A stretch of DNA of 64,000 bases from an uncultured Christensenellaceae bacterium (GCA_964432485.1 CAYSNP010000001.1:22043-86042); one strand, 5' to 3'. Numbered from the stretch's first letter, positions 5,582 to 57,900 are shown. Translations and numbers: made by a program. Notes: generated from the sequence alone by a model not told the origin.

Positions 5582-8204
5582 ATTATCACCAATGATGACT
5601 CATTACAAACAGCTTAAAAAGGACTATCCTGACACTATTATTTTTTATAGGTTAGGGGACTTTTACGAAATGTTTTTTGACGATGCGCTAATAGCTTCAG
5701 AACTGCTTGGGCTTACGCTAACCGGCAGAGATTGCGGACTGGAGCAAAGAGCGCCTATGTGCGGAGTGCCTTATCATGCGGCGGAAGGCTATATTGCCAA
5801 ACTGATTAATGCAGGGCAAAAAGTTGCAATTTGTGAGCAACTGACAGCCCCGGAAGACCAAAAAGGGCTTGTAGAGCGAGATGTGATTAAAGTAATTACC
5901 GCAGGCACTCTTACAGAAGAAAGTATGCTTGACGAGCGCGCCAACAACTACCTTGCTTGCGTATATCTTACCGATAAAGCGTATGCAATAGCCTGGTGCG
6001 ACATTTCAACGGGCGAATTTCAGGTGTTTGAGCAAAAGGGCAATGATTTTGCACAAATTGAGCAGCATCTTCTTAAAATCGAACCCAGTGAAATTATAGG
6101 CAACACCCTTTTTGCCGATAATAAGTTAAAGTTAGAGCTATTCAAAAGTGCGCATAATGTCTTTTTTCAGCAGTTTTACGATTATGCTTTTGATATAGAC
6201 AACGCCAAAGCAGCCATACTTACCCATACGGGAGCATATGACTTAAAGGTTTTTGGGCTGGAGGGCAAACCTATTGCCGCAGGATGCGCCGGAGCTTTGC
6301 TAGAGTATATTTATACCACGCAAAAGACAGCTATTGCGCATATCAATAATATTGTATACTTGAATCATAAAGACTATATGTTTTTGGATTACAATTGCAA
6401 GCGTAACTTAGAACTTACCCGTTCGATGTACGACAATAGCAAGCAAAACACCTTGCTTTGGGTACTTGATAACACTTATACCAGTATGGGCGCAAGAGAG
6501 CTTGTTAAGGTGATAGAAAATCCGCTGCTGGATTCTGATAAGATAAATAAGCGGCTTGACGCTGTGCAAGAGCTTATAGCATATGCTCCGCTTAGAGAAG
6601 AATTGGTGCTATATCTTAAAAAGATAAAAGATATAGAAAGAATGGCAAGCAAGATTGCTTTAGGCTCTGTTAAGCCCAGAGATTGCATAGCTATAGCGCA
6701 ATCTTTGGAGCAAATTCCAAAACTCAAGAAACTACTTTTCGGTTTTCGCTGTAGCTTACTTAATGCTTGTGCTGAAAATCTTAATTCTTTAGAGAATTTA
6801 TACAGTGAACTTTTTGCGGCAATTTGTATAGAGCCGCCTGCGCAAATAAGAGATGGCGGCTTTATTGCAAGCGGATATAACGAGTTGCTTGATGAGTATC
6901 GAGATGCACAAAATAAGGGCAAAAGTTGGATTGCGGAATACGAAGCTCAAGAACGTGAGCGCACCGGTATAAAGCTACTTAGAATCGGCTACAATAGGGT
7001 CTTTGGTTACTATTTAGAAATCCCCAATTCGCAACTGTCGCTTGCCCCTTATGCTTATCAGCGCAAGCAGACACTTTCTACCGGCGAGCGCTTTATAACT
7101 GAGGAGCTAAAAGCAGTTGAGGAGCGTATTTTGGGCGCAAGCGAAAAGGCTGTTGCCTTAGAGCTGGAATTGTTTAGCAACCTTATCAAAATCTTAAAAG
7201 GATATATTCAGCCGCTGCAAAGCAATGCTAAAATCATTGCTGCAATTGATGTGTTATGCTCATTTGCACAAGTGAGCATTCGTAACAATTACAGCAGGCC
7301 TACAATTAATAAAAAGGTTTCTGCAATAAATATCAAAAATGGCAGGCATCCCGTGCTAGAAGCGCTAATGGCAGAAAATGAATTTATTGCCAATGATACT
7401 TTTATAGATAAACAAGACCGCACCCATATTATTACGGGGCCGAATATGGCAGGCAAAAGTACATATATGCGACAAGTTGCGCTTATTACGCTTATGGCGC
7501 ATATAGGTTGTTTTGTCCCTGCAGATAAGGCGGAGATTGCATTGACGGATAAGATTTTTACTAGGGTAGGCGCAGGCGATAACCTTGCGCAAAGGCAAAG
7601 CACCTTTATGCTGGAAATGATAGAAGTGGCTAATATTCTCAATAACGCTACTCAAAAAAGTTTATTGATTTTAGACGAAATAGGACGAGGCACAAGCACC
7701 ATTGACGGACTATCTATTGCATGGGCTATTATGGAGTATATTACCGAAAAAATAAAGGGAAAGGCATTGCTTGCTACTCATTTTCATGAGCTTACCGAGC
7801 TGGAAAACTTTGCACCTCATGTAAAAAACTTTAGAATTCTGGTTAAAGAAGAAGGCGACGGAGTAGTTTTTCTTTACAAGATTAAGAGAGGGGGCACTAA
7901 CAAAAGTTTTGGTATCGAAGTTGCGGGACTTGCAGGAGTAAAAAGGCAAGTTATTCAAAGGGCAAAGGCAATTATGAACTCCTTGCTCCAATCGCATGAG
8001 TTTGGCGGCAATCTTAGAGAAAAGCTAAAAAATGCAGATGAAAATGAAGCAAGCAGCACAAGCGATTATAGCGATGATAAAAATATTTTGTTAGAAAATC
8101 TGTTAAACATAGTTGGGCAGGTAAAAATAGAGGATATAACACCTTTGGAAGCAGTATCAGCATTGGCGCAATTAAAAGCCTTGGCGGAAGGCAAAAATGG
8201 CTAA
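5574..8204 (+). CDS. mutS: DNA mismatch repair protein MutS
   Basis: GTG start preceded by GGGGGAGGG. N-terminus LSPMMTHYKQLK, Walker A GPNMAGKST, and DEIGRGTST. 876 aa. Confidence 0.97.
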   Translation: MSKLSPMMTHYKQLKKDYPDTIIFYRLGDFYEMFFDDALIASELLGLTLTGRDCGLEQRAPMCGVPYHAAEGYIAKLINAGQKVAICEQLTAPEDQKGLVERDVIKVITAGTLTEESMLDERANNYLACVYLTDKAYAIAWCDISTGEFQVFEQKGNDFAQIEQHLLKIEPSEIIGNTLFADNKLKLELFKSAHNVFFQQFYDYAFDIDNAKAAILTHTGAYDLKVFGLEGKPIAAGCAGALLEYIYTTQKTAIAHINNIVYLNHKDYMFLDYNCKRNLELTRSMYDNSKQNTLLWVLDNTYTSMGARELVKVIENPLLDSDKINKRLDAVQELIAYAPLREELVLYLKKIKDIERMASKIALGSVKPRDCIAIAQSLEQIPKLKKLLFGFRCSLLNACAENLNSLENLYSELFAAICIEPPAQIRDGGFIASGYNELLDEYRDAQNKGKSWIAEYEAQERERTGIKLLRIGYNRVFGYYLEIPNSQLSLAPYAYQRKQTLSTGERFITEELKAVEERILGASEKAVALELELFSNLIKILKGYIQPLQSNAKIIAAIDVLCSFAQVSIRNNYSRPTINKKVSAINIKNGRHPVLEALMAENEFIANDTFIDKQDRTHIITGPNMAGKSTYMRQVALITLMAHIGCFVPADKAEIALTDKIFTRVGAGDNLAQRQSTFMLEMIEVANILNNATQKSLLILDEIGRGTSTIDGLSIAWAIMEYITEKIKGKALLATHFHELTELENFAPHVKNFRILVKEEGDGVVFLYKIKRGGTNKSFGIEVAGLAGVKRQVIQRAKAIMNSLLQSHEFGGNLREKLKNADENEASSTSDYSDDKNILLENLLNIVGQVKIEDITPLEAVSALAQLKALAEGKNG

Positions 8205-10094: not shown

Positions 10095-11324
10095 ATGGAT
10101 ATAAATCAAGCACGCTTTTTAGTATTACAAGCCGAACAAGAAGCAAAAGACAGCTTTAGCACCATAGAGCAAATAGCATTATATAATCAAGAAAAAGTGC
10201 TGGAAGCATTTAGCAAAGCGAAAGTAGCTCAAAGGCATTTCTATCCCTCAACAGGTTATGGATATGATGATGCTTCTAGGCGCACCTTATCAGAAGTGTA
10301 TGCAAAATGCTTTAAGATAGAGGATGCATTAGTTTCACCGTTGATTTCAGGCGGTACAGGCGCTCTTTGCTTATCTTTATTTGGACTGTTGCGACCTTCT
10401 GACCTTATGCTATCTATTAGCGGCAAGCCTTATGAAACCCTTTCTAGGGTAATAAGCGGCTCTGGCACAGGCTCTTTGCAAGATTTTGGTATAAAATATC
10501 ACGAAATTGCTTTGGCTAATGGCGATTTTGATTTACAAGCAATATCAAAATATATTAAAGAAAATAAGGTAAAATTAGCTTATATACAACGCTCCAGAGG
10601 TTACGAGTTCCGAAGAGCATTAAGCGTAGAGCAAATAGGGCGTGTTTGCTCAATTATTAAGAAAATAGATCCAAATTGTATAGTTTTATGCGATAATTGC
10701 TATGGAGAGTTTACCGAATTATATGAGCCTAGCGAGGTTGGCGCAGACCTTATTATTGGCTCATTAATTAAAAATCCCGGTGGGGGGCTAGCGCCGACAG
10801 GCGGCTATGTAGCAGGTAAACTGGCATATATTGACGCAATTTCCGGCAAATTGACCGCTCCGTCAGTAGGGCGGGCTGTAGGTTCGTATGCGGCAAGCTA
10901 CCGACCATATTTTCAAGGGTTTTTTATGGCGCCTTCTACCGTAAGCTATGCCCTTAAAGGCAATGCTTTAGCTTCGTATATCTTTACCAAGTTAGGCTAT
11001 AATGTGCTTCCTCTGCCCGGCGAGATACCTCACGATATAGTTGTAGCAATTAAGTTTAATACCAAAGAAGAATTAATTGCATTTTGCCAATCTGTGCAAT
11101 ATGCCTCTCCGGTAGACGGTTTTGTTACAGCTTGCCCCGGACCAATGCCCGGATATAGTCATGAAGTAATTATGGCAGCAGGGACTTTTGTACAAGGCGG
11201 CTCATTGGAGCTTACCGCAGATGCTCCAATTAGAGAGCCATATATTGCATATCTGCAAGGCGGCCTAACCTATGAGCATATTAAAATTGCTCTTATAAAG
11301 ATATTGCAAAGTCTGGATAGATAA
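10095..11324 (+). CDS. YnbB-type PLP enzyme (methionine gamma-lyase / 'aluminium resistance' family)
   Basis: Motif HFYPSTGYGYDDASRRTLSEVYA and an overall length of 409 aa match the family usually found downstream of mutL in Firmicutes. Confidence 0.8.
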   Translation: MDINQARFLVLQAEQEAKDSFSTIEQIALYNQEKVLEAFSKAKVAQRHFYPSTGYGYDDASRRTLSEVYAKCFKIEDALVSPLISGGTGALCLSLFGLLRPSDLMLSISGKPYETLSRVISGSGTGSLQDFGIKYHEIALANGDFDLQAISKYIKENKVKLAYIQRSRGYEFRRALSVEQIGRVCSIIKKIDPNCIVLCDNCYGEFTELYEPSEVGADLIIGSLIKNPGGGLAPTGGYVAGKLAYIDAISGKLTAPSVGRAVGSYAASYRPYFQGFFMAPSTVSYALKGNALASYIFTKLGYNVLPLPGEIPHDIVVAIKFNTKEELIAFCQSVQYASPVDGFVTACPGPMPGYSHEVIMAAGTFVQGGSLELTADAPIREPYIAYLQGGLTYEHIKIALIKILQSLDR

Positions 11325-11453
11325 TAAGCCTTACAATAAGATATAATTACCTTTTAGCCCTATTTTGATAACAATACCCCCTATCTATTCGTTAAACCTG
11401 TATTTTGCGAATAGATTTATAACTTAAATTTCCTAGTACCCTATTCTGATTTC

Positions 11454-11561
11454 GTCTTTGCAGGGGACGCGTTAAGCAGGCTTGCCGGTGGCAAGTCTGT
11501 AGGGGGAGCCCACGAGCAAATGCGGGAGCATTGCGAGGGTATAATCAGTGAAGCAATCCAG
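11454..11561. repeat. family B copy 1 (108 bp)
   Basis: GTCTTTGCAGGGGACGCGTTAAGCAGGCTTGCCGGTGGCAAGTCTGTAGGGGGAGCCCACGAGCAAATGCGGGAGCATTGCGAGGGTATAATCAGTGAAGCAATCCAG. Confidence 0.9.
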
Positions 11562-11619
11562 TTCTAGAGCCTTAATCCCTATTTTCTCTTTTACATAAAG
11601 CAATCCAGGCCCCTAAAAA

Positions 11620-12075
11620 GTCATTGCGAGGCACGAAGCAATCCAGACTCCAGAGGGTTGCTCCCTGTTCTCCAGAGGCTTGCTCCTTATTTGCAGAGGC
11701 TTACTCCCTGCCCTACCAATCTCACCTTAACTTTTTGCCAAAGACAAAAAATCTCATTATGAGCCTCGCTCATAATATCATTTGCATAAGCAAATATAAC
11801 TTTGCGGCTTGTCCGCAAAATCTCATTGCACAGAGCCTTGCTCCCTTGTCTTTGCGAGGCACGAAGCAATCCAGACTCCAGAGGCTTTGCTCCCTGTTCT
11901 CCAGAGGCTTGCTCCTTGTTTGCAGAGGCTTCCTCCCTGCCCTACCAATCCCACCTTAACTTTTTGCCAAAGACAAAAAATCTCATTATGAGCCTCGCTC
12001 ATAATATCATTTGCATAAGCAAATATAACTTTGCGGCTTGTCCGCAAAATCTCATTGCACAGAGCCTTGCTCCTT
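11620..12075. repeat. family V, tandem pair 1 (two 228-bp units: 11620-11847 and 11848-12075)
   Basis: Each unit reads GTC(A/T)TTGCGAGGCACGAAGCAATCCAGACTCCAGAGG ... CCTTAAC, then four hairpins, then ATCTCATTGCACAGAGCCTTGCTCC. The period is exactly 228 bp. Confidence 0.9.
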
Positions 12076-12162
12076 ATTTTATTGTATTATGGTGAAGCTG
12101 TGCTTTGCGGGATTGATTGCTGGATTGCTTCGGCACTTTGTGCCTCGCAAAGACGTTAGAAA

Positions 12163-12270
12163 GTCATTGCAGGCGACGCGTTAAGCTGAGTTGCCAGTGG
12201 CAAGTCTGTAGGGGGAGCCCACGAGCAAATGCGGGAGCATTGCGAGGCTATAATCAGTAAAGCAATCCAG
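12163..12270. repeat. family B copy 2 (108 bp)
   Basis: Same order and length as copy 1, with about 8 substitutions. Confidence 0.9.
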
Positions 12271-12310
12271 CCCCAGAGCCCTACTCCTTGATTGCTGAGG
12301 CTTGCTCCTT

Positions 12311-12426
12311 GTTAAATTGCAGCAAACTCTCTAAATATCACCATATTGCTTTCGCACAAGAATAATTGTTCGTTATTACATTCAAATTGAATTTGCTTGT
12401 GTGCTCTGCACAAGAATAATTGTTCA
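12311..12426. repeat. family U module 1 (box - ATTCAAATTGAAT palindrome - box)
   Basis: GTTAAATTGCAGCAAACTCTCTAAATATCACCATATTGCTTT + box 12353-12372 + palindrome 12380-12392 + box 12407-12426. Confidence 0.9.
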
Positions 12427-12658
12427 AGTGCTTCTTTTTAATTTGAAATTCAGCAGTGCTTCGCGGGACTGGATTGCTTCGGCACTTTGTGCCTCGCAAA
12501 GACAAGCTGTGCTAGCGTATGCCCTAGATTGCTTTGTCGCGCTTGCTCCGCGCAATGACGATTTCCAATCCTTGTTGGTAATTATTTATGATGGAAAGCC
12601 CCTATTTCGTCTTTGCGAGCGACAGCGAAGCAATCCAGAGTTCGGAGGCCGGCTCCTT

Positions 12659-12776
12659 GTTAAATTGCAGCAAACTCTCTAAATATCACTATATTGCTTT
12701 CGAACAAGAATAATTGTCCGTAATCATATTCAAATTGAATTTGCTTAATTGCTTTCTGTACAAGAATGATTGTTCG
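12659..12776. repeat. family U module 2
   Basis: Same architecture as module 1; boxes at 12701-12720 and 12757-12776. Confidence 0.9.
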
Positions 12777-12912
12777 CAATCCAGACTCCAAAGGGTTGCT
12801 CCTTGTTCTCTAGAAGCTTTGCTTCTTGTTTTATTGCGTTATGGTGAGGCTATGCTTGCGTTTGCTCTGGTTTGCTTCGGCACTATCGTTCCTCGCAAAG
12901 ACGAGTTAGGAA

Positions 12913-13020
12913 GTCATTGCAGGCGGTGCGTTAAACAGGCTTGCCGGTGGCAAGTCTGTAGGGGGAGCCCGCGAGCAAATGCGGGAGCATTGCGAGGGTA
13001 TAATCAGTGAAGCAATCCAG
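12913..13020. repeat. family B copy 3 (108 bp)
   Basis: Preceded by the same CTGG(T/A)TTGCTTCGGCACTATCGTTCCTCGCAAAGACGAGTTAGGAA element as copy 4. Confidence 0.9.
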
Positions 13021-13060
13021 CCCCAGAGCCCTACTTCTTGATTGCTGAGGCTTGCTCCCT

Positions 13061-13176
13061 GTTAAGTGCAGCAAACTCTCTAAATATCACCATATTGCTT
13101 TTGCACAAGAAAAATTGTAAGTAATCACATTCAAATTGAATTTACTTAATTGCTTTTGCACAAGAATAATTGTTTG
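13061..13176. repeat. family U module 3
   Basis: Same architecture, with a 1-nt deletion (GTTAAGTGCAGC); boxes at 13102-13121 and 13157-13176. Confidence 0.9.
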
Positions 13177-13355
13177 AATACTTCTTTTTTAATCTGCAAT
13201 TTAGCAAGGCTAACGCTTGCTTTGGATTGCTTCGGCACTAATGTTCTTCGCAAAGCCGGTTTATAATACTTTTTTTTAAATATTTATGGTGCAATGCCCT
13301 AGTTCGTCTTTGCGAGCAGTAGCGAAGCAATCCAGATTCCAGAGGCTTGCTCCTT

Positions 13356-13472
13356 GTTAAGTTGTAGCAAACTCTCTAAATATCGCCATATTGCTTTCGT
13401 ACAATAATAATTGTTCGCAATCATATTCAAATTGAATTTGCTTAATTGCTTTTGCACAAGAATAATTGTTCA
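13356..13472. repeat. family U module 4
   Basis: Boxes at 13398-13417 and 13453-13472. Confidence 0.9.
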
Positions 13473-13562
13473 ATATCTCTTTTTTAATCTGTAATTAGGC
13501 AACGCTTACACTTATCCTGGATTGCTTCGGCACTATCGTTCCTCGCAAAGACGAGTTAGGAA

Positions 13563-13670
13563 GTCATTGCAGGCGGTGCGTTAAGCAGGCTTGCCGGTGG
13601 CAAGTCTGTAGGGGGAGCCCGCGAGCAAATGCGAGAGCATTGCGAGGGTATAATTAGCGAAGCAATCCAG
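13563..13670. repeat. family B copy 4 (108 bp)
   Basis: About 96% identical to copy 3 across 13517-13670 versus 12867-13020. Confidence 0.9.
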
Positions 13671-13691
13671 ACTCCAGAGGGTTGCTTCCTT

Positions 13692-14127
13692 GTCTTTGCG
13701 AGGCACGAAGCAATCCAGACTCCAGAGGGTTGCTCCCTGTTCTCCAGAGGCTTGCTCCTTATTTGCAGAGGCTTACTCCCTGCCCTACCAATCTCACCTT
13801 AACTTTTTGCCAAAGACAAAAAATCTCATTATGAGCCTCGCTCATAATATCATTTGCATAAGCAAATATAACTTTGCGGCTTGTCCGCAAAATCTCATTG
13901 CACAGAGCCTTGCTTTCTTGTCTTTGCGAGCGGTAGCGAAGCAATCCAGACTCCAGAGGGTTGCTCCCTGTTCTCCAGAGGCTTTGCTTCTTGCCCTACC
14001 AATCCCACCTTAACTTTTTGCCAAAGGCAAAAAATCTCATTATGAGCCCCGCTCATAATCTCATTTGCAAGGCAAATCTCACTTTGCAACTTGTTGCAAA
14101 ATCTCATTGCACAGAGCCTTGCTCCCC
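13692..14127. repeat. family V, tandem pair 2 (13692-13919, 228 bp; 13920-14127, 208 bp with a 20-bp internal deletion)
   Basis: 13692-13919 is nearly identical to 11620-11847. The fourth unit is the most diverged and carries compensatory stem changes. Confidence 0.9.
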
Positions 14128-14174
14128 GTCTTTTCGAGGCACGAAGCAATCCAGACTCCAGAGGGTTGCTCCCT

Positions 14175-14291
14175 GTTAAGTTGCAGCAAACTCTCTAAAT
14201 ATCACCATATTGCTTTCGCACAAGTATAATTGTCCGCAATCATATTCAAATTGACTTTGCTTAATTGCTTCTGCACAAGAATAATTGTTTG
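14175..14291. repeat. family U module 5
   Basis: Boxes at 14217-14236 and 14272-14291. Confidence 0.9.
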
Positions 14292-14967
14292 AATACTTCT
14301 TTTTTAATCTGCAATTCAGCAAGGCTAACGCTTGCCCTGGATTGCTTCGGCACTTTGTGCCTCGCAAAGACAAGCTGTGCTAGCGTATACCCTGGATTGC
14401 TTTGTCGCTTTCGCTCCGCGCAATGACGGTTTATAAACCTTTTCGGTTGTTTTTTAAGGTGCAATATCCCTATTTTGTCTTTGTGTGCGATAGCAAAACA
14501 AAGATATTTTGATTTATTCAAATTGAATTTGTTTAATTGCTTTCAACACAAGAATAATTGTTCGTAATCTAAACTCCAAAGGGTGCTGCCTGTTTTATTG
14601 TGTTTTGTGAAGATGTGCTTCGACTGGATTGCTCCCTATTTTATTGTGTTATGTGAAGCCCTGCTTGCGTGGGGTTGGATTTATAAACAAGGAGCAGTAC
14701 TAGCGCAGGTCCTTTTGCACAAGAATAATTGTTCAAGTGCTTCTTTTTAATTTGAAATTCAGCAGTGCTTCGCGGGACTGGATTGCTTCGGCACTTTGTG
14801 CCTCGCAAAGACAAGCTGTGCTAGCGTATGCCCTAGATTGCTTTGTCGCGCTTGCTCCGCGCAATGACGATTTCCAATCCTTGTTGGTAATTATTTATGA
14901 TGGAAAGCCCCTATTTCGTCTTTGCGAGCGACAGCGAAGCAATCCAGAGTTCGGAGGCCGGCTCCTT

Positions 14968-15085
14968 GTTAAGTAGCAGCAACCTCGCTAAATATCGCCA
15001 TATTGCTTTCGAACAAGAATAATTGTCCGTAATCATATTCAAATTGACTTTGCTTAATTGCTTTTTGCACAAGAATAATTGTTCG
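14968..15085. repeat. family U module 6
   Basis: Boxes at 15010-15029 and 15066-15085. A partial module (palindrome plus one box) lies at about 14513-14564. Confidence 0.9.
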
Positions 15086-15440
15086 AATGCTTCTTTATTT
15101 TATTGAGTTATGGTGAAGCTGTGCTTCGTGGGACTGGATTGCTTCGGCACGATACACGCTAAGGCGCGATGAAATGCACTTGCCATATGCAAGTGTTGAA
15201 ATACATTTATTGCATAAATGGTGCAATACACGCTAAAGCGTGGTGAAATACATTTGCTTTTGCAAATGATTAAGGTGAGATTTATAAACAAGGAGCAAGT
15301 GCTAGCGCAAGTCCTTCCGCACAAGAATAATTGTTCTCAATCCAGACTCCAAAGGGTTGCTCCCTATTTTATTGTATTATGTGAAGCCCTGCTTGCGTGG
15401 GGCTGGATTGCTTCACGATGTTTGCAAAGACAATATTATC

Positions 15441-15468
15441 TTGATTCCTTCCTGATTTGTGTTATAAT
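15441..15468 (+). promoter_or_regulatory. putative strong sigma-A promoter of the recombinase gene (TTGATT-N16-TGtTATAAT)
   Basis: TTGATT at 15441-15446, extended -10 TG at 15460-15461, and TATAAT at 15463-15468. The ATG at 15475 is the 7th nt after the hexamer, and there is no SD. Confidence 0.5.
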
Positions 15469-15474
15469 CAAAGT

Positions 15475-16530
15475 ATGGACAGCAATTACTTTAGCAATCT
15501 AAAAAGAGAGCAATATTTTAAGCTAAATGAGTTATTAAACTCCCTACCCTCTTTTTGCAGAATGTTTTTTATTGGTATTGAGGGGGGGACGGAGGTTCTT
15601 ACACGCTTGGGTTATGCTAGGGATTTAATGATTTTTTTTGATTTTTTAGTCAAAGAAATGCCTGACCTTGATAAGGGTAAAGTAGCTGATATTACTTTAG
15701 CTGATTTGGCAAAGGTGCAAGCTATACATATAGAGCGGTATTTAAGTTATCTTTCTTATTACACCTTTAATAATAAAAGGCTATCCAATGGCGAAAGGGC
15801 AAAGGCACGAAAACTAAGTGCAATTCGCTCCCTATTTAAGTACTTATATAATAAGGACTTATTGCCTGAAAATGTGTCTGAAAAGGTGCAAACCCCTAAA
15901 TTGCATAGCAAAGAAATTGTACGACTAAATGAAGCCGAAATAGTAACTATGCTTGACAATATTGATGAGACCGCTTTCCCCTCTGATAGGCAAAGGACAT
16001 ATAATAAACATACACGTATAAGAGATAATGCTATTATTACGCTAATGCTTACCACAGGTATAAGGATAAGCGAATGTGCGGGGCTGGATTTTCAAGATAT
16101 TGATTTAGAAAATCACTCTTTTATAGTGACACGCAAAGGCGGCAATAGAGCAATACTCTATTTTTCTAATGAAACAGCGCAAGCTCTTGAGGCATATTTT
16201 GATGAGCGTGAAGTTAAATTATCTTCTCTTGGCAAGTCTATTCAAGGTCCCCTATTCCTTTCTTTGCAAAACAAGCGTCTAAGCGTTAGAGCTATTCAAA
16301 ACATAGTTAAAAAGTATGCCACAATAAGCGCACCGCTTAAAGAGATTTCGCCCCATAAGCTAAGGAGTACTTATGGCACACAGCTATATCGCAGCACCAA
16401 AGATATATATGTAGTTGCAGAAGTGCTTGGGCATAAGGATATTAACACAACCAAAAAGCATTATGCCGCAATAAGCGAGGATATTAAAAGAGAAGCATCT
16501 AATAAAGTAATTCTGCGTAAACAAAAGTAA
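15475..16530 (+). CDS. tyrosine-type site-specific recombinase (XerC/XerD-like integrase family)
   Basis: Catalytic signature TGIRISE (Arg), HKLRSTYGT (H-x-x-R), and LGHKDINTTKKHY (His...Tyr). An N-terminal SAM-like core-binding region is present. ATG at 15475 is preferred over the TTG at 15457. Confidence 0.85.
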   Translation: MDSNYFSNLKREQYFKLNELLNSLPSFCRMFFIGIEGGTEVLTRLGYARDLMIFFDFLVKEMPDLDKGKVADITLADLAKVQAIHIERYLSYLSYYTFNNKRLSNGERAKARKLSAIRSLFKYLYNKDLLPENVSEKVQTPKLHSKEIVRLNEAEIVTMLDNIDETAFPSDRQRTYNKHTRIRDNAIITLMLTTGIRISECAGLDFQDIDLENHSFIVTRKGGNRAILYFSNETAQALEAYFDEREVKLSSLGKSIQGPLFLSLQNKRLSVRAIQNIVKKYATISAPLKEISPHKLRSTYGTQLYRSTKDIYVVAEVLGHKDINTTKKHYAAISEDIKREASNKVILRKQK

Positions 16531-16619: not shown

Positions 16620-17237
16620 ATGACAAAAAGATTGGAAATGAAGGAAAAGCTGCAAGATATATTGGATTTTATTATTCAATGGACAGAGCAAAACGGGTAT
16701 CCGCCTACCATTAGGGAGATTTGCGACGGATTGCAAATTAGTTCCACCTCTTCGGCGCATTACTATGTAAAAAAGCTGCAAAAGGCGGGGAAGCTGGCCA
16801 TTGATAAGAATAAATCCCGAGCTATCGGTATTTCCGCTAAGCAGTTGCAGCCTAAAGACACTGTCAAAGTGCCTTATATCGGCAGAGTCCCTGCCGGCGT
16901 GCCTCGGCTTGCTTTTAGTGATGATATGGAAGTTTTTTATTTGCCTAACGGACTTTTTAATGCCAAAGGCGAGCTTTTTATGTTGGATGTTATAGGTTCA
17001 AGCATGATAAATGATGGCATTTTAGACGGAGATAAAATTATTGTGCGAAGCCAAAATACCGCAAATAACGGTGAAATTGTTGTAGCAAGGATTGACGAGG
17101 AGAATTGTACGGTAAAACGCTTTTATAAAGAGGAAAATCAAATCAAATTAATGCCTGCAAATGACAATATGTTGCCTATTTATTCGCAAAATGTTATGAT
17201 ACTAGGAAAGGTCGTTGGGATATTGCGCAATATTTGA
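16620..17237 (+). CDS. lexA: LexA repressor (SOS regulator, S24 peptidase)
   Basis: AAGGAGG precedes the ATG at 16620. N-terminal wHTH (GYPPTIREICDGL), cleavage-site region GRVPAGVP, and Ser/Lys dyad contexts GSSM and VKRF. Confidence 0.95.
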   Translation: MTKRLEMKEKLQDILDFIIQWTEQNGYPPTIREICDGLQISSTSSAHYYVKKLQKAGKLAIDKNKSRAIGISAKQLQPKDTVKVPYIGRVPAGVPRLAFSDDMEVFYLPNGLFNAKGELFMLDVIGSSMINDGILDGDKIIVRSQNTANNGEIVVARIDEENCTVKRFYKEENQIKLMPANDNMLPIYSQNVMILGKVVGILRNI

Positions 17238-17299: not shown

Positions 17300-18550
17300 A
17301 TGAATACTGCTGTTACTGATTTAATAAGAGTTCATGTAGATATTATTGTACTCAAAACCTTAGAGCAAGAAGACAGATACGGATTGGAAATACTTGCCGC
17401 TGTTACCGACGCCAGCGCCGCTAAATACGAAATAAAGCAGCCGACTCTGTACAATATCTTAAAAAGGTTAGAAAAACAAGGGCTGATAGAAAGCTACGAC
17501 GGGGAAGAATCTTTAGGCGCAAAACGCAAGTATTTTAAGCTGACCGCAGAAGGTAAAGAATATTTAGAAAACTATCAAAATGATTGGATTTACACTAGAA
17601 CCTTGCTTGATAGTCTTATAAGCAGCGAACAAATTGATTTGGAAAATTACACACCGCCTTTTGATGCTTCCGCCTTGCGCCCTTTGACTAAAAGGGCAAG
17701 GGTAGAAGAAGATGAGCCAGAAAGTGATGCTGAAGACCAAACAGAATTTGCTCCTAAGGAAAAAGAAAGAGTGCCTTTATTTGTGACCAAGCCCTATCTT
17801 GCCTCAGCGCCTCAAGCCGCTGAAGTGCTTGAAGAAGATAAAGAAAATCGAGATAAAGCAAGCCGAATGCTGTGTATAGGCAAATATGCGCCCAAGCCCG
17901 GCTATAAAATTACTGATGATAGTATTAAAAACCCTGCCACAAAGAGCAGAAATACTATTTTTCATAAAATCTTTACCGAATCTATGGAGAGATTCCACGA
18001 AAAGCCCAAAATGGTGAACATTCGCCCTAAAGCAATGCACTTTAATGATTTAGCTGTTGCATATAAGAATCAAGGGATAGCGCTTCAATCTTATAATTCT
18101 TTAGATAGGGTAGCTTTTTATAAGAATAACTTTATAATAATCAATAAAATAAAATTCATTGCCGCTATGCTGACTTTTTTAATCCTTGCAGCAGAGCTAG
18201 CCTTGCTTTACTTTTTTAATGATTACTTAACTTTACCGAGTTATGTATATCCTGCTATTGCTCTTGCGGCATTCCCCTATTTTCAAGCAATCCGTTATGC
18301 AGTTGCTCCCAAAGCTCGGCAACTTCTCAATTACAACTTCTATATTTCTGCATTAGCTTCGCTAATAATATTTTTCTTATGTATTAGTTTAAGCTCAATA
18401 CTGTTTATTGTATCTCCTGATTTGGGCGTAACATTTACAGACCCCCTATTTTACGCTCCTTGGCTGATACTATCCAACTTAGTGGTTTATCAGTTGATAT
18501 ACAGGCAACTTTTTGTATCCAAAAGATACCATTGCAAATCTGCAATATAA
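17300..18550 (+). CDS. PadR-family winged-helix regulator fused to a C-terminal polytopic membrane domain
   Basis: The N-terminus VDIIVLKTLEQEDRYGLEI...IKQPTLYNILKRLEKQGLIESY is PadR-like. An acidic linker follows, then about 4 predicted TM helices in the last roughly 140 aa. Confidence 0.75.
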   Translation: MNTAVTDLIRVHVDIIVLKTLEQEDRYGLEILAAVTDASAAKYEIKQPTLYNILKRLEKQGLIESYDGEESLGAKRKYFKLTAEGKEYLENYQNDWIYTRTLLDSLISSEQIDLENYTPPFDASALRPLTKRARVEEDEPESDAEDQTEFAPKEKERVPLFVTKPYLASAPQAAEVLEEDKENRDKASRMLCIGKYAPKPGYKITDDSIKNPATKSRNTIFHKIFTESMERFHEKPKMVNIRPKAMHFNDLAVAYKNQGIALQSYNSLDRVAFYKNNFIIINKIKFIAAMLTFLILAAELALLYFFNDYLTLPSYVYPAIALAAFPYFQAIRYAVAPKARQLLNYNFYISALASLIIFFLCISLSSILFIVSPDLGVTFTDPLFYAPWLILSNLVVYQLIYRQLFVSKRYHCKSAI

Positions 18551-18553
18551 GGC

Positions 18554-18712
18554 TTAATACGGTCCTTTGATATTGTTAGATGCTTGGTCAATTATTTCTT
18601 TAACTTGTGTAGAAATAGGCATTTTTTTTAATAATTGGCTATCATCTAAAGGTTTTTCTGCTATTTCGGCCTTTTTCTTTTTTTTGAACAATCTTTTAAT
18701 CACTTTTAGCAT
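18554..18712 (-). CDS. possible small protein (52 aa, basic N-terminus), below the ORF-track length cutoff
   Basis: ATG at 18712 lies 11 nt after the rnhA stop. Translation: MLKVIKRLFKKKKKAEIAEKPLDDSQLLKKMPISTQVKEIIDQASNNIKGPY. The SD is weak. Confidence 0.25.
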   Translation of the reverse strand: MLKVIKRLFKKKKKAEIAEKPLDDSQLLKKMPISTQVKEIIDQASNNIKGPY

Positions 18713-18723
18713 ATTCCAACCTA

Positions 18724-19158
18724 CTAATGCAACTTTTTAATTTCGTCTTTTGCCAGCTTGTCGCATTTGTTATTATATTCATTATCCGAATGCGCTTTTA
18801 CTTTAACAAAAGTCACCTTATGTTTTTGCACGATATCATAAAGAGGCTTCCAAATATCTGCATTTTTTCTATCATTTCCCTTATGCTTCCAATCCTTTAA
18901 GCGCCACTCATATATCCAACCTTTAATAAAGGGATTAAGGGCATAAGCGCTATCGCTATAAACAGTTACATTGCATTGCTCTTTTAATTGCGTAAGCCCG
19001 CTAAGTATAGCAAGCAGTTCCATTCGGTTATTGGTAGTATTATCATGCCCGCCGGAAATAATCTTTTCCTTATCTTTGTAAATAAGTATGGCTGCCCAAC
19101 CGCCTTTTCCCGGATTGCCGCTGCAAGCACCGTCTGTGTAAATATCCACCTTTTTCAC
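18724..19158 (-). CDS. rnhA: ribonuclease HI
   Basis: Motifs YTDGACSGNPGKGGWA, NNRMEL, DSAY and KAHSDNEYNNKCDKLA. The GTG at 19158 (GGAG 8 nt upstream, overlapping the proC stop in TAGTG) is favoured over the ATG at 19197 inside proC. Confidence 0.88.
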   Translation of the reverse strand: MKKVDIYTDGACSGNPGKGGWAAILIYKDKEKIISGGHDNTTNNRMELLAILSGLTQLKEQCNVTVYSDSAYALNPFIKGWIYEWRLKDWKHKGNDRKNADIWKPLYDIVQKHKVTFVKVKAHSDNEYNNKCDKLAKDEIKKLH

Positions 19159-51787: not shown

Positions 51788-51915
51788 TACTATTATTTTA
51801 ACCTTCATGCAAACTTAATGCAAGCAGATTTTACAGCGGTGTTAGTTTAGCTTATAATTTTGCCAAATTAGTATATGATAAATGATAGTGATAATAATTT
51901 ACCAATGGGAGAATT

Positions 51916-54900
51916 ATGGAATACCTTTATTTGCTTTTAGCTTTGGTAGGCTTAGCCTTTGTTTTAATGATACTCTCCAATAAAAGAGAAAATATTGAAA
52001 AAATACAAATGCGCACCCTTTCTGAGGAGGACTTTGCTGCCGGAATCAGAGCTAAAGCAAGAGATTTTAGAAGTCTTTCGCATGGGAGAGGTGTAAACAT
52101 TTTTGCGCTTTCTCACCAAATCAATAAGGCTATTCAAAGCATTAACAGAAAGAATAATGCAAATCGTCCGCTTTTTGAACATGAAAGATGGCTATATGAG
52201 AACTACTATTTAGTGCGCAGATATATGGCGGCGCATCATAATAGAAGTTTTAACAGGCTGCCTAATTCCAATCAGCAAATCCGAATATTAGAATTTGCAC
52301 GGTTTATTGTGGCTAACAGTACGGAAAACCTAACACAAGAACGGGTGCTTGCCGCCATTAAAATGATAAATAATGAAACATCGCTGTACCTTAACGAAAT
52401 AATGAATTTTAAAAAAGCTATTACTTATGCGCTAATCGAACAAATATATATATTGAGCGAAAGAGTCATTTACCATAACAAAATGGCTCGGCAAGCCAAT
52501 AAAAAGCTGTTTAAGGGAGAGCACTTACGCAGCGATATTTATGCCCATTACGCCTTAAAGAATCCTCGTTTAAGCGCAGCCGCTCATTCAGAGCTGCTAA
52601 AAATGGGCGTGGAGTCCAAAAGCATAGACTACAATTACAGCCTTTCTATATTGGAAAGCACCAAAATGGCAAAAAGCCTTTTTAAGTCCTTAATGCATAT
52701 CAACAGCTTATTTAATGAGGATGTGCTAATCAATCATTTGAATATTTCAAAAGTGCTTAATAAAGATGACCAATATGCCAATATGAGTTTGGACACTAAA
52801 AAGAATTACCTATCAATAATTGAAAGAATAAGTTCTAAACTTAATGTCAGCGAACTGCTAACTGCTAATAAACTGATAGAATTGGCAAGATATAACGATA
52901 TTTATTTTGGCGAAATCCTTTCCGGTCACCCTAAGCGATTGTACTGCTTTATAAAGAATAATAAGCTTGTTAAAATTAAGGTCAGGCCAAGTTTTAGAAA
53001 CGAATGTGTTTATATAACAGCTTTAAGCGTTTTGGCTCTTGCTGCTGCTTTTGGGTTTGGCTGGCTTTACCGCAGCGTATGGTTAGGGCTGCTTAGCCTA
53101 GTACCTATTTTCTTTATAGCAGAAAAGCTCATAAATGCCGTATTGTCCGCCATTGTCAATTCCAGAAATATCCCAAGTATGAACTATACCTCTATCCCCA
53201 ACGAGTGCAATACCTTAATTGTAATTTCGCAATTTATTGGCGATAGAGCGCAGCTTGAGGAAGCACTTGCTCACTTGCGAGCAGTTAAGGAAAGTAATAA
53301 TGATAAAAATATACAAACTTCTTTATTAATAGATTTTAAGAGCAGCAAAAAGGAAATTGACCCTCAAGACTCAATTCTGCTAGAAATGTTAAGACAATTT
53401 GAAGGTGAGGCGGGCTTTAATATCTTTGTGCGAAAACGCTCTAAAATTGGTGATAAATATGCAGGCTGGGAAAGAAAACGAGGGGCAATAATGGCGCTTG
53501 CCCGCTATTTGGTTACCGGTGATTCCAAAGATTTCTTTTATGTTTGCAATCGCAATGCGCCTTCGCCTAAGTATATCATAGTATTAGATGATGACAATGT
53601 AATGCTCCCCGGTGCGGCAAAGGAGCTTATTAACTTAATAGCTCACCCCGGTAATGCCGGCTATGATTTAATAGCCACCAGAAGCAAGTTCAATTTGTAT
53701 TCAATCAAGACTCCCTTTTCTCGGCGTTTTTTGGCGGAAAGCGGGGTAGAAGCATATCCTAATTACAGCTCGCTTTACTTTAACTTATTTAAGAAAGACA
53801 TTTTTTGCGGCAAAGGGATTTTTCGGCTAAAGGAGTTTTATAATAAATTAGACGGTATCTTCCCATCCAATAAGATATTGAGCCACGACATTATAGAAGG
53901 TGCAATATTGTCAACAGCAAGCACTTCCTTTATTTATGAAAATGCACCTAAGAACTTTGTTTCAGAAAAAGAGCGCAGAACCCGTTGGGCAAGAGGCGAC
54001 ATAGAACTGCTGCCCTTTATTTTATGCAAATGGAATAACGATGAAAAAGATATTTACAAGTCAGAAATCAGCCCTTTTTATAAGTTTATAATAATAAAAA
54101 ATGCACTTAATATTCTTTTGCCTGCCTTTGTACTGGCTATCGTAATCCTCTTTTTTGTCAATCCTTCAATTTGGCTGCTTGCAGGAATTACCGTCCTTTC
54201 TGCACTTGTAATTGATTGGATAACTGCTTTGCGCAGAGCCAAGGACGGAATAAGGCTAAGATATATCCTGCTGCAAATATGGACCAGCGCATACTTAACT
54301 GCAGAAATGCTGTTATTGCTGCCTTTTGAAGCCTACCATGGCATTAAAACCTTTATAGTTACAGCAGTAAAAATGATAAAAAAAGGCAATTTGCTGGAAT
54401 GGAAAACTTATTATTCTTCTCAAAAAGCCTCTGGATTTTTGAAATTTGTTACTTTAACCGCCCCTTCTATGCCTATAATGTTAATAGTTGCTATTATTTT
54501 AACTTTGCTGCGTGTAAATATAGCCGCATTAGCAATTTTTACCCTTTTATCATACTTGTATTTGCCTTTACTATATTTGCTTGGCCTAGAAAAAGCGGAA
54601 AGGAGCTTAACTGAAAAAGATAAAAAGCTACTGGGCGATTATGCTGTCAAAACATATAATTATTTTAAGTTTATGAATAACAATATGGATTTGATTGCAG
54701 ATAATTTACAGCTAAAACCTTATAAAGGAACATCGGAAACAACTTCTCCCACTAATATCGGATATAGCTTGCTTGCCGAAGTTTGCGCATATTATCTTAA
54801 ACTAAACGAATTGGAAAATGTAATAGACAATATTGAAAAAACCTTAAACAAAATTACTGTACTGCAAAAATGGAATGGCAACCTATACAATTGGTACTAT

Positions 54901-57900
54901 GTAAAGAATGGCGAGGTTGCGCAAAAGTTTGTATCCAGCGTAGATAGCGGCAACCTAGTAGCGTCATTGATAGTTGTAACAGAGTTCTTAAAAGAACATA
55001 ATGCTTCAATGCTTGCAAAAAAGGCTCAAACCATTATAGATAATACTAATTTAAGCAGTTTGTATGACAATACTGCCAATCTATTTTATTTAGGTTACTA
55101 CCCTAATGAAAATCGATTTGAAGGAGCGTATGACTTGCTGGCTTCCGAGTCCCGCCTGCTAAGTTTAATATATATTGCTTATGGCGGGTCTATTGCACAT
55201 TATAGAGAATTGACTCGTGACTATACCCCTATTCGGGGCAACACCCTGTATTCTTGGTCCGGCACTGCATTTGAATACTTAATGCCCTCGCTGTTTATTA
55301 AACCGCCTCCGTATTCGTTACTCGACCATTCCTGCAGGAATGCGGTAAGCGCACAAAAAAAGGTAAGAAAGAAGCGTACTTGGGGCATAAGCGAAAGCGG
55401 ATATTACAGCTTTGATGAGGACTTAAAATATCAATATAAAGCCTTTGGCGTCAATGATTTATCACTTGATATAGATAAAAATGAAGTGGTGCTTTCTCCA
55501 TACAGCAGCTTTTTAGCATTGGATATTTCACCCCGCAGCGTAATTAAAAACCTAAAAAGGCTGCAAAAAGCCGGGGCTTACGGCGAATATGGATTTTATG
55601 AATCTATAGATTTTATTAATAAAAAGCAAATTGTATCTTCATTTATGACCCATCATCAAGGGATGATAATTGCATCCTTAGCAAACTTTTTGACCGCTGG
55701 CGCTATTGAAAAATTAATGTTAAGGAATCCTAAGATAGAGGGAATAAAAATTCTGCTGTCGGAACGAACCAGCCAACAAGTGTACAGACGCAAGCAAAAA
55801 GATAAAAAGATACAAGCTAAAAGGGACAATTCTAAGTTTAGCGAAAGCTATATGCACCTAAAAGATAAGCTATACAGCGGCGGGCTTTCTAACGGTACAA
55901 TTACGGGCTTTTATGATAGCAATGGCAATAGTTTTCTAAAATATCAAGATATCTTTATTAATAAGTTTAGAGCGGATTATCAATCAGTATATGGTGGAGT
56001 CTTTTACATTAAGCAAAACAACAAACTGTACTCTCCCACTTATTACCCTTTAGCAGGCGATAAAGAAAATTATGTTTTTACAGTAAACAGCGATAGTATT
56101 AATTATGCCAATACCAAAGATAAGGTATCCTTGGATATTGCAATAGACGACGATTTTAATGCAGAGGTAAAACGGTTGACACTTGGTACTAATAACCAAA
56201 ATCCTACCGTGTACTTTTTTGAAGAATTGGCAGTAAGCAAAGCAGAAGAGCACGAAGCACACCAAACCTTTTGCAATATGTTTATTAGCACAAGCATTGA
56301 TAAAGAAAAAAATGTGGTCTTAGTGCACCGTAAAGCAAGAGGGAAGAAAGGCGATATTTATATAGCTTATATAATAAGGGGACTAAAAGACTTAGAAATA
56401 GAGACCAATCGGTTTAACTTTATTGGCCGCAAAAGAGAGGAGCATACCCCCGCTTTTATTTTTGATAAGCATATCAAATACAATTCGGAAGGAGATGTGC
56501 TAGAGCCTTGTATTGGCTTTGCCGGCAAATTCAAAAAGCGTGAAGGTGCGGGATACAAGTGCGAAATTATCAAGATAGTTGACGAAAACAAAGATAGCTT
56601 ACTCAATTTGATAGACTTGATACCTTCAGATTTTTATGAGTATGCACTTGAGAAATCTACTCAATTTATCTTTCATAAACAGGCCGGAGCTCTTGCCGCT
56701 TCATTGTTGTACAAGCCTTATTCCAAAGAGGCCCTAAGATTTGTTATGGAAAACGACCTTCTAAAGGAGTTTATTGAGCTAACCGACTTCAAAAAGACAA
56801 TACTGTTTTATTTTAACGATATAGAAGATACCGAAAAGCTGTTAACGCTATGCTCAATAATCAACAGCTTGTATTTATTTAACATTAAGGTCAGACCTAT
56901 TATAATTTATAAGGAGTCTTTTGATAAAAATATTAAAGAGCATATTGAGGAAAAATTAAAAAGATACTTTATAATTAATTATAAATTAATTGAATCAAAT
57001 GAGGAAAAAAGCTATATAGCAGAGTTTGCTTTTATTACGCTAAACGAGAATCTTGCTATAAATGAAAGTGTTTTTATAGATAAAAGACGCCAAAGTTTGC
57101 CTAATCAAGCGGCAAAAGTTGAAAAAGACAAAGAACATTGGGGCTTAGAATCCGGAGTCGGCAGTTTTGATGCGGAAGGCAACTATATTATAGATAATAC
57201 AAGGACAACGGACTTGCCATACTCAAATATTGTAGCAGGCAGATATGGGGGCTTTGTAATTACAGAAAATGGCGGCGGTTTTACCTACTTTGAAAACAGC
57301 AGAGAAAATAAAGTTACCCGCTTTGAAAATGACCCAATTAAAGATATAGCTTATGAACAGTTGCTTTTATGCTCAGACGACAATTTTAGACTTAATTGCA
57401 GCTCGCACCATACTATAGTTACTCATAACTTAGGCAGCACAGTTTTTGCAACTAAATTGAATGAATTGCAAATAAACAGCGAGTTTTATATTATTGAAGA
57501 GGGCAAAGTTAAAGTAATAGAGGTCTCTGCCCGTCAAAAAAATATGGATAACTTATGCTTTTCGTATATTATTGATTGCGCTTTAGGGTGGAAGCATGAA
57601 GATACTTTTCTGTACACATATTTTGAAGAAGATATCCTTAAAGTGATAAACCTTAAAAACTCACAAAGCGTATATATTAAAATCATTGGCAGCAATACAA
57701 CCGTCAATTATAATGAAAATAAAGCACTGCCCAATCTTTTAATTAAAATTGATAAGCCTTTATCTCAAAACAAGTTTTATATTGTTATGTCAAGCAGGCT
57801 TGAGAACATTTTGGAGCTATCTGCTGAAAAAATTGATTATAAAAAAGAAGAAGGACTACAGTATTATAAAAATCTGTCTAATATAGAACTATCCAGCAAT

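Follow-up and report, generated by a model that had tools for sequence, protein, structure and literature searches.

The stretch of DNA considered here, referred to as the window, comprises 64,000 nucleotides of one strand from an uncultured Christensenellaceae bacterium (GCA_964432485.1, CAYSNP010000001.1:22043-86042). Between a ynbB-type gene and the gene for an XerS-like tyrosine recombinase, which is followed by lexA, it carries about 4 kb of non-coding repeat DNA that includes 15 copies of a 20-bp box, all in the same orientation. This array is real, and its presence in a compact bacterial genome is unusual. In the reading preferred here, to which we assign a probability of roughly 55%, each box represents the conserved 14-bp core of a repeat family that forms part of a lineage-specific, non-coding intergenic mosaic that resembles the NIMEs (Neisseria intergenic mosaic elements). 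The main features at the locus are the following (those without direction are given without strand).
10095 to 11324, plus strand: ynbB-type gene (Met_gamma_lyase family), left neighbour of the array
11383 to 11416: dif-like 34-bp palindrome, ATCTATTCGTTAAA-CCTGTA-TTTTGCGAATAGAT, at the left border of the array
11450 to 15430 (approximate): the whole non-coding mosaic repeat array, about 4 kb
15441 to 15468, plus strand: promoter-like TTGATT-16-TATAAT of the recombinase gene, 3' of the array and kept in relatives
15475 to 16530, plus strand: gene for the XerS-like tyrosine recombinase, 351 amino acids
16583 to 16596: likely LexA operator CGATTATTTGTTCT with N4 spacing, just 3' of the lexA promoter
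16620 to 17237, plus strand: lexA

An earlier note on this DNA had placed lexA directly after the recombinase gene, and this is indeed its position (15475-16530, then 16620-17237). A PadR-type gene comes after lexA, and miaB, mutS and mutL lie upstream of the array. The array borders, at about 11449 and about 15432, are the points at which alignment to the short spacers of relatives stops and resumes. In related species this spacer between ynbB and the recombinase gene measures about 200-280 bp (760 bp in one of them, L108). The GC content of the array is 43%, compared with 39% for the window. All boxes fall within a 4.1-kb stretch without a credible gene, and no conserved open reading frame (ORF) was found within the array. 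Outside the array, the window consists of ordinary housekeeping DNA, in which neither a transposase nor a further SOS gene was detected.

A scan of the window with the pattern YGMACAAGAATAATTGTYYR, allowing up to two mismatches, retrieved 14 matches, all on the plus strand and all within 12353-15337; 0.01 matches are expected from shuffled sequence, and none of 100 shuffles reached 14. A degenerate 15th copy at 13102-13121 (TGCACAAGAAAAATTGTAAG) has one mismatch in the 14-nt core, and no box lies outside 12353-15337 anywhere in the 64 kb. Six pairs with a start-to-start distance of 54-56 nt share the layout box, 7 nt, palindrome ATTCAAATTGAAT, 14 to 16 nt, box. The palindrome is 13 nt long and ends in GACT in two copies. 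Three boxes (14545, 14716 and 15318) stand alone, and spacings other than those within the pairs range from 171 to 764 nt. The earlier note had reported 15 co-oriented 20-bp boxes in this interval, arranged mostly in pairs about 54 bp apart with a palindrome between them; number, orientation and layout agree with the present count, and its best copies (12701, 15010 and 12353) were quoted correctly. Boxes and palindromes are given below in the order of their position.
12353 to 12372, plus strand: box 1, CGCACAAGAATAATTGTTCG, first of a pair
12380 to 12392: palindrome ATTCAAATTGAAT between boxes 1 and 2
12407 to 12426, plus strand: box 2, TGCACAAGAATAATTGTTCA, second of a pair; the segment duplicated at 14716 has its left edge here
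12701 to 12720, plus strand: box 3, CGAACAAGAATAATTGTCCG
12728 to 12740: palindrome between boxes 3 and 4
12757 to 12776, plus strand: box 4, TGTACAAGAATGATTGTTCG, directly followed by CAATCCAG
13102 to 13121, plus strand: box 5, TGCACAAGAAAAATTGTAAG, the most degenerate copy
13129 to 13141: palindrome between boxes 5 and 6
13157 to 13176, plus strand: box 6, TGCACAAGAATAATTGTTTG
13398 to 13417, plus strand: box 7, CGTACAATAATAATTGTTCG
13425 to 13437: palindrome between boxes 7 and 8
13453 to 13472, plus strand: box 8, TGCACAAGAATAATTGTTCA
14217 to 14236, plus strand: box 9, CGCACAAGTATAATTGTCCG
14244 to 14256: palindrome variant ATTCAAATTGACT between boxes 9 and 10
14272 to 14291, plus strand: box 10, TGCACAAGAATAATTGTTTG
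14516 to 14528: palindrome 5' of box 11
14545 to 14564, plus strand: box 11, AACACAAGAATAATTGTTCG; the palindrome lies 5' of it and the first box is absent
14716 to 14735, plus strand: box 12, solo; its left flank (GGTCCTTT) is of a third kind
15010 to 15029, plus strand: box 13, CGAACAAGAATAATTGTCCG
15037 to 15049: palindrome variant between boxes 13 and 14
15066 to 15085, plus strand: box 14, TGCACAAGAATAATTGTTCG; the best dif-like match, 16 of 22 arm positions
15318 to 15337, plus strand: box 15, solo, in the frame aGTCCTTCCGC-box core-TCTCAATCCAG, with an outer frame as in the R units described below

Conservation was assessed on 31 copies from two species, that of the window and a sister species introduced below. 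The conserved part of the box is the 14-nt core ACAAGAATAATTGT (positions 4-17), in which 11 of 434 cells deviate, and the outer triplets (positions 1-3 and 18-20) are variable. The TT directly 5' of the box is invariant, a C five bases 3' of it is present in 29 of the 31 copies, and the orientation is the same in all of them. Covariation of the outer box pairs does not exceed the prediction from base frequencies, and position 3 is almost never complementary to position 18. Folded as single-stranded DNA, the box reaches -1.3 to -2.0 kcal/mol and equals shuffled sequences (z near 0), and the box-bearing modules fold weakly as RNA (z -0.4 to -2.9). The lack of covariation and the unstable fold rule out that the box is a maintained hairpin; since no stable hairpin is formed, any protein reading the box most likely reads duplex DNA. 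A tandem period of 55 nt was not detected by TRF. The suggestion of an iteron set, also made in the earlier note, found no support: the spacing is irregular (54-56 nt, then 171-764 nt) without regular phasing, and no rep gene is present among the window ORFs. A centromere-like array is ruled out on gene content and spacing.

The boxes are one class of places at which segments of the array are joined. They recur between different flanks, with three to five classes of left flank and four classes of right flank in many combinations. The stretches 12407-12776 and 14716-15085 are homologous to each other, with limits that coincide exactly with box edges, a left one at the start and a right one at the end; the duplicated segment is 100% identical over about 258 nt and about 92% identical thereafter. 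Other joints use shorter shared strings, such as GCAATC.

Altogether, at least six repeat families make up the array. Modules A, A' and A'' are long hairpin modules of 110-170 nt that are closed by inverted CTGGATTGCTT/AAGCAATCCAG ends. Module B is the box-palindrome-box unit with a conserved 55-nt leader, module C comprises 229 nt on the minus strand with four hairpins split by a conserved linker, module G is a hairpin string related to C in the opposite orientation, and module D is characterized by 'TTTTATTGTRTTATGGTGAAGC'. Neither these families nor the 22-nt and R families have copies in the other 60 kb of the window, and the module profiles match sister-species loci only, with no match in six relatives.
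12120 to 12270, plus strand: module A, 151 nt, inverted CTGGATTGCTT/AAGCAATCCAG; RNA fold -59.4 kcal/mol, z -4.3
12867 to 13020 and 13517 to 13670, with a partial copy at 11440 to 11561: further copies of module A
12469 to 12638, plus strand: module A', 170 nt; another copy at 14778 to 14947 and a truncated one at 14337 to 14501
13222 to 13335: module A'', related to A'
11620 to 12087, minus strand: two tandem C modules with a 229-nt period, four hairpins each and UGAGAUU-type linkers; similar to the RNA family Gut-1, sub-threshold
13692 to 14150, minus strand: two more C modules, with the best Gut-1 match (39.3 bits against a cut-off of 50, E 2.3e-5)
15141 to 15295, plus strand: G module, a hairpin string with UGAAAU-type linkers, inverted relative to C

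The hairpin strings of C and G contain three to seven hairpins with differing stems and a constant linker (CATTATGTAC in the sister species, where locus L027 10440-10660 holds a copy). The A-type modules have inverted ends of 12-27 bp, and the marks of a miniature inverted-repeat transposable element, namely target duplications and a parent element, were not found for them. Several readings of the array were rejected. Small peptide genes in the D modules are contradicted by ATG frames that are broken by stops and by frameshifts between copies, and invertible switches or a shufflon by the relative orientation of all modules, which is the same in both species. An integron cassette array would have an attC-type (GTTRRRY) core and ORFs, neither of which is present, and the integron integrase model scores 62 bits against a cut-off of 265. 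A promoter set was dismissed with 11 promoter-like sites against 12.6 expected. As a separate observation, 22-nt tandem units (CTCCAGAGGCTTGCTCCCTGTT) occur in 2.9 copies each at 11648-11710, 11876-11939 and 13720-13782; their reverse complement holds AAGGAG, and the plus strand is rich in CUCC strings that resemble an anti-Shine-Dalgarno sequence.

The R family consists of 16 units of the form (C)GTCWTTGC...GCAATCCAG, for example CGTCTTTGCGAGGCACAAAGTGCCGAAGCAATCCAG and GTCATTGCGAGGCACGAAGCAATCCAG, which occupy both strands between 11620 and 15431.
11620 to 11646, plus strand: R unit GTCATTGCGAGGCACGAAGCAATCCAG, with flanks as in the neisserial NTS
11848 to 11874, plus strand: R unit
12120 to 12154, minus strand: R unit, left arm of module A
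12469 to 12503, minus strand: R unit, left arm of module A'
12524 to 12559, minus strand: R unit, GTCATTGCGCGG variant
12609 to 12638, plus strand: R unit, right arm of module A'
13306 to 13335, plus strand: R unit, right arm of module A''
13517 to 13552, minus strand: R unit, left arm of module A
13692 to 13718, plus strand: R unit
13920 to 13949, plus strand: R unit
14337 to 14371, minus strand: R unit
14392 to 14427, minus strand: R unit, GTCATTGCGCGG variant
14778 to 14812, minus strand: R unit, left arm of module A'
14833 to 14868, minus strand: R unit
14918 to 14947, plus strand: R unit, right arm of module A'
15403 to 15431, minus strand: R unit, degenerate, marking the right edge of the array and kept in the sister species

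The NTS is a 28-nt neisserial repeat (CGTCATTCCCGCGMAVGCGGGAATCYRG) that contains the 20-bp dRS3 and is cut in its single-stranded form by the GIY-YIG nuclease SsnA (PMC11893778). The R units carry the outer flanks of the NTS (CGTCATT...AATCCAG) around a 20-bp inverted-repeat core and comply with the published flank rules, 5' HGTCWY and 3' RNCYNB around an inverted repeat of 20-50 nt (PMC11893778). Units of the type TCATTGCGAG-N6-20-GAAGCAATC were found in at least 120 viral contigs, several of which have multiple copies and recurrent fillers. The viral loci with R-type units are L111-L190, and no GIY-YIG ORF was seen near the units in the pieces examined. R-type units also occur in the flanks of termite-gut and Desulfococcus sequences in published alignments. 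When aligned by eye, box 15 (aGTCCTTCCGC-ACAAGAATAATTGT-TCTCAATCCAG) and box 4 (...TTGTTCGCAATCCAG) share the outer frame of the R units. Because these two boxes sit in the R-unit frame, the box is plausibly a strand-fixed derivative of the R-unit family. Unlike the NTS, the boxes form no stable hairpin and fit the frame in only one or two copies; the fit to the NTS flank rule is approximate and concerns box 15 only.

The distribution of the array was followed in relatives and in sequence collections. Clostridia hold thousands of orthologues of the window's recombinase, among which the nearest named ones belong to Christensenellales, and exact-sequence look-ups gave no match for it. Relatives with a 55-77% identical recombinase mostly show the gene order mutS-mutL-miaA-ynbB-recombinase-lexA-PadR; L109 is without lexA and PadR downstream, and L110 is rearranged. 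No box was found in the contigs of these relatives, of which L001, L002 and L107 keep ynbB-recombinase-lexA-PadR with short spacers. Since relatives with a 60-77% identical recombinase lack the boxes, the array does not belong to any conserved recombinase/lexA circuit. No array was detected with the box 18-mer in 185,579 species-representative genomes, where 21 scattered single matches in unrelated phyla correspond to chance, and three chance matches were obtained in viral contigs. The box 17-mer retrieved 80 metagenomic loci, of which three are real relatives, all from sample Ga0265293. Plasmid and phage collections contained no BLAST match to the array, and a protein search with a spurious box-spanning ORF of 93 amino acids, which sought arrays via miscalled genes, was likewise without result. 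The repeat strings returned coincidental primer matches only from the literature.

The metagenome Ga0265293 contains a sister species, in which the genes on either side of the array share 94% and 90% DNA identity with those of the window. It carries an array at the same locus, in which the module order differs from the second module onwards and the module number differs as well; its contigs break inside the array, and the loci compared with the window are L064 and L102. A second array of the sister species (L027, Ga0265293_10005762, 10100-12419) comprises modules C, A, D and G and a single fused box, and is interrupted by an IS5-like insertion sequence (IS) element with a DDE transposase and GRGTTGTAGCGAAATG ends. 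Downstream of this second array is a gene whose product exceeds 3400 amino acids and has InlB B-repeat / Listeria-Bacteroides repeat domains; the gene has no counterpart in the window. The array is restricted to the window species and its sister species. These comparisons mark it as young and fast-changing, not tied to recombinase-lexA and possible at more than one locus.

NIMEs are long non-coding arrays in which dRS3/NTS repeats take turns with 50-150-bp repeats from more than 100 families. They are syntenic between strains, vary in repeat number and length, gain IS elements and cluster near surface-protein genes; a comparative paper from 2007 stated that they are absent outside Neisseria (PMC1797815). 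In its behaviour the array agrees with them on every point examined, and it shares with them the combination of 20-bp dyad repeats and short hairpin units with many repeat families of 35-250 bp in kilobase non-coding arrays. Its position is syntenic between the window and the sister species while repeat number and order differ, an IS element has inserted in an array, and one array of the sister species lies beside a giant surface-type protein gene. It differs in its host, a Firmicute of the Christensenellales type and not Neisseria, in its units, which read ATTGC-N10 to N19-GCAAT with the box ACAA-N6-TTGT in place of the ATTCCC-N8-GGGAAT of dRS3, in the strict co-orientation of its boxes, and in that a single array is present in 64 kb with housekeeping genes as neighbours. 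REP/BIME (repetitive extragenic palindromes/bacterial interspersed mosaic elements) of enterobacteria and BOX of pneumococcus are likewise extragenic, modular and strain-variable combinations of short imperfect palindromes and linkers. Compared with these, the modules described here are far longer and more diverse, and no transposase of the RAYT (REP-associated tyrosine transposase) type was seen. We infer that such a mosaic would grow and reshuffle by recombination between short direct repeats (boxes, R units and other shared strings), driven either by slippage or short homology or by a site-specific enzyme that works in trans. This duplicative history would account for the uniform orientation of the boxes, and the box itself would probably have arisen from the R units of the array.

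Several points weigh against the NIME-like mosaic. The full published degenerate pattern of Ssn-related motifs has no match in the window, the stems of the R units are weak and AT-richer than those of the NTS, and no GIY-YIG (cd10448 ssn) domain was found among the scanned window ORFs. The modules have no copies in the other 60 kb of the window, and all 31 boxes are co-oriented, whereas dRS3 and NTS are not strictly so in their arrays. The 55-nt leader that precedes first-of-pair boxes is as conserved as the box. As the leader is equally conserved and the palindrome is unexplained, the box module could serve some other function, for example as a regulatory region or in the assembly of a nucleoprotein complex. 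The joints at the boxes fit site-specific and short-homology recombination alike.

The site-specific route directs attention to the recombinase and to the dif-like palindrome at the left border of the array. The best model for the recombinase is XerS, matched over the full length with 179.8 bits (equivalog cut-off 267), and the nearest solved structures are XerD, XerA and XerH. The 34-bp palindrome is unique in the window and has counterparts near the recombinase gene in all six relatives examined (L001 9864-9897, L002 about 1246-1279, L107 5901-5934, L108 5742-5775, L109 5861-5894 and L110 3245-3278). Six species show hardly any change in its 14-bp arms (ATCTATTCGCAAAA), and the 6-bp centre differs in nearly every one of them. 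In the rearranged L110, the site does not lie beside ynbB and is still 2.7 kb from the recombinase gene, so the palindrome is not simply the ynbB terminator. Like the streptococcal difSL, which is adjacent to xerS, the palindrome is a neighbour of a single recombinase of 351 amino acids, and its arms ATTCGCAAAA and TTTTGCGAAT resemble the arms TTTCCGAAAA and TTTTCTTGAAA of difSL (PMC5357621). Judged from its sequence, the palindrome is a candidate dif site of a single-recombinase Xer system of Christensenellales-type Clostridia. Single arms occur as well: a near-perfect one (ATTTATTCGCAAAA, 13 of 14 positions) without a partner arm lies inside the 3' end of lexA at 17178-17191, and two extra ones (CTATTCGTAAAA) lie in the 760-bp spacer of L108.

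It is rather unlikely that the boxes are core sites of a tyrosine recombinase, most simply the XerS-like neighbour, and that the array is a store of small non-coding segments that site-specific recombination between boxes relocates, copies and removes beside the dif-like site, in the manner of a cassette array or of an IMEX (integrative mobile element exploiting Xer). Box and flanks form a partial 11-6-11 dyad (for example CTTTCGCACAA-GAATAA-TTGTTCGCAAT) in which the inner 4 bp are always symmetric and 5-9 of 11 positions are symmetric overall; in first-of-pair boxes the value is 8 of 11. All boxes keep the asymmetric 6-bp centre, which gives direction, as expected of sites that recombine with each other; this centre, GAATAA, has nothing in common with the CCTGTA of the dif-like site, and in this the boxes differ from known dif-exploiting elements (PMC5357621). 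The best box matches the dif-like arms in the same register at 16 of 22 positions, a value reached by 2 of 59,906 background positions, and boxes rank 3rd, 6th, 7th and 8th of 64,000 positions with the dif profile, but the score itself is low (7.5 bits for a box against 40.9 for the dif-like site). The duplicated segments are bounded by boxes and the array is placed between the dif-like site and the single XerS-like gene, yet it has no coding cargo and no pseudo-dif at its right end. Pairs of 54-56 bp are too short for excised circles, the second array of the sister species has one box only and no dif-like site nearby, and relatives with the same recombinase have no boxes. Quite unlikely is the more specific proposal that the boxes are working XerS-like core sites and that the array is a gene-free, integron- or IMEX-like and Xer-driven store beside dif, formed in a Firmicute from NTS-like units. 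The array is also unlikely to be a group of genes for small structured RNAs (A-type and Gut-1-like) in which box-palindrome-box modules would be shared regulatory regions and the boxes operators or RNA motifs. Modules A, C and G show a strand preference and fold far better than shuffled sequences (z -4.3, -4.9 and -2.4), the minus strand of the C modules has terminator-like hairpins, one or two compensatory pairs are found in a C hairpin, and the box modules are AT-rich, poorly folding and dyad-rich like regulatory DNA. However, promoter-like sites are not enriched (11 against 12.6), compensatory changes are missing from the A-type modules, modules of opposite orientation are interleaved, and, unusually for regulatory RNAs, related species lack the modules. 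To our knowledge, Gut-1 (RF01706) has so far been encountered in human-gut metagenomes only. The C modules share with it the hairpin strings with UGA(G/A)AU linkers, the layout and the strand signal (minus strand, E 2.3e-5), but their scores in a relaxed search (39.3, 32.6, 32.6 and 19.1 bits) stay below the Rfam gathering cut-off of 50 and are lower still in the sister loci; moreover, the likeness concerns the C modules and not the boxes. Sub-threshold Gut-1 matches are all that the relaxed Rfam search returned, and at curated thresholds the window yields tRNA-Trp only.

Highly improbable is the remaining alternative to the NIME-like mosaic, in which the array titrates LexA, bound through an offset GAAT-N4-GTTC, or another regulator such as the neighbouring PadR-type protein. 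The earlier note had idealised the box as CGAAC-N10-GTTCG, with the half-sites of the Gram-positive SOS (Cheo) box; some copies do end in this way, but these half-sites are 10 bp apart and coincide with the least conserved, variable positions of the box. The offset site occurs in 8 of the 15 boxes (GAATAATTGTTC in seven, GAATGATTGTTC in one) and matches GAAC-N4-GTTC at 7 of 8 positions, and lexA is 1.3 kb away. With respect to CGAAC-N4-GTTCG it reaches 8 of 10 positions, which a binomial estimate predicts by chance about once per 2.4 kb; no site with at least 9 of 10 exists in the window, where CGAACNNNNGTTCG (CGAAC-N4-GTTCG) has no match with up to one mismatch. Box positions 16-19, which belong to this site, vary (GTTC, GTCC, GTTT, GTAA), whereas ACAAG, irrelevant to LexA, is invariant. 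The likely lexA operators of the clade look different. The dyad CGATTATTTGTTC, directly 3' of a good lexA promoter, is common to the window, L001 and L002, and the corresponding dyads are CGAATATCTGTTCG in L107 (about 7090-7103), which has the same GAAT half-site as the boxes, and GCAAACTTTTGTTTGC in L108 (about 7157-7172). Their left half-sites are weak or variant (GATT, GAAT, AAAC), and all of these dyads are of the Cheo type with the standard N4 spacing. The box has also turned out to be an internal piece of a wider, modular repeat that occupies a second locus in the sister species, and both results correspond largely to what the earlier note had named as refuting its idea. The promoter of the recombinase gene lies downstream of the array, which has no conserved ORF, so the boxes are not located in the promoter region of a regulated gene, and no gene follows them. 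PadR-type regulators recognize the consensus ATGT-N8-ACAT, which does not fit the box. LexA is an unlikely partner of the boxes because the likely operators of the clade have N4 spacing, the offset match is of a quality often reached by chance and the array is absent from relatives with the same lexA; a subset of the boxes might still be bound. The boxes are not to be counted as SOS boxes. From the earlier proposal of a titrating or recombinase-binding array, a changed form survives, with the boxes as joints and as a partial 11-6-11 dyad and without the LexA part.

Detailed descriptions of kilobase non-coding mosaic arrays exist essentially for Neisseria alone (PMC1797815). An array of this kind in an uncultured gut-type lineage of Clostridia, with units flanked like the neisserial NTS, suggests a more general route to fast-changing intergenic DNA and provides a second, very distant system in which array function and the action of Ssn-type nucleases or recombinases can be addressed. 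A by-product of the analysis is the candidate single-recombinase dif/Xer module that is conserved across Christensenellales-type genomes.

Some further observations concern the surroundings of the array. The gene miaA (IPPT) lies between mutL and ynbB in L001, L107, L108 and L109 and is missing there in the window, where mutL ends at 10050 and ynbB starts at 10095. The C-terminal half of an ORF of 2471 amino acids (51916-59331) contains domains of the glycoside hydrolase 94 (cellobiose/cyclic-glucan phosphorylase-type) and glucoamylase-like kinds, and the first approximately 1100 residues of this ORF are unannotated. The GC skew merely follows gene orientation and has both its maximum and its minimum within 35 kb. 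Runs of co-oriented genes diverge at 51808-51916 and converge at about 18550-18724, about 7 kb to the right of the dif-like site, and the convergence near 18.6 kb is kept in L001 and L107.

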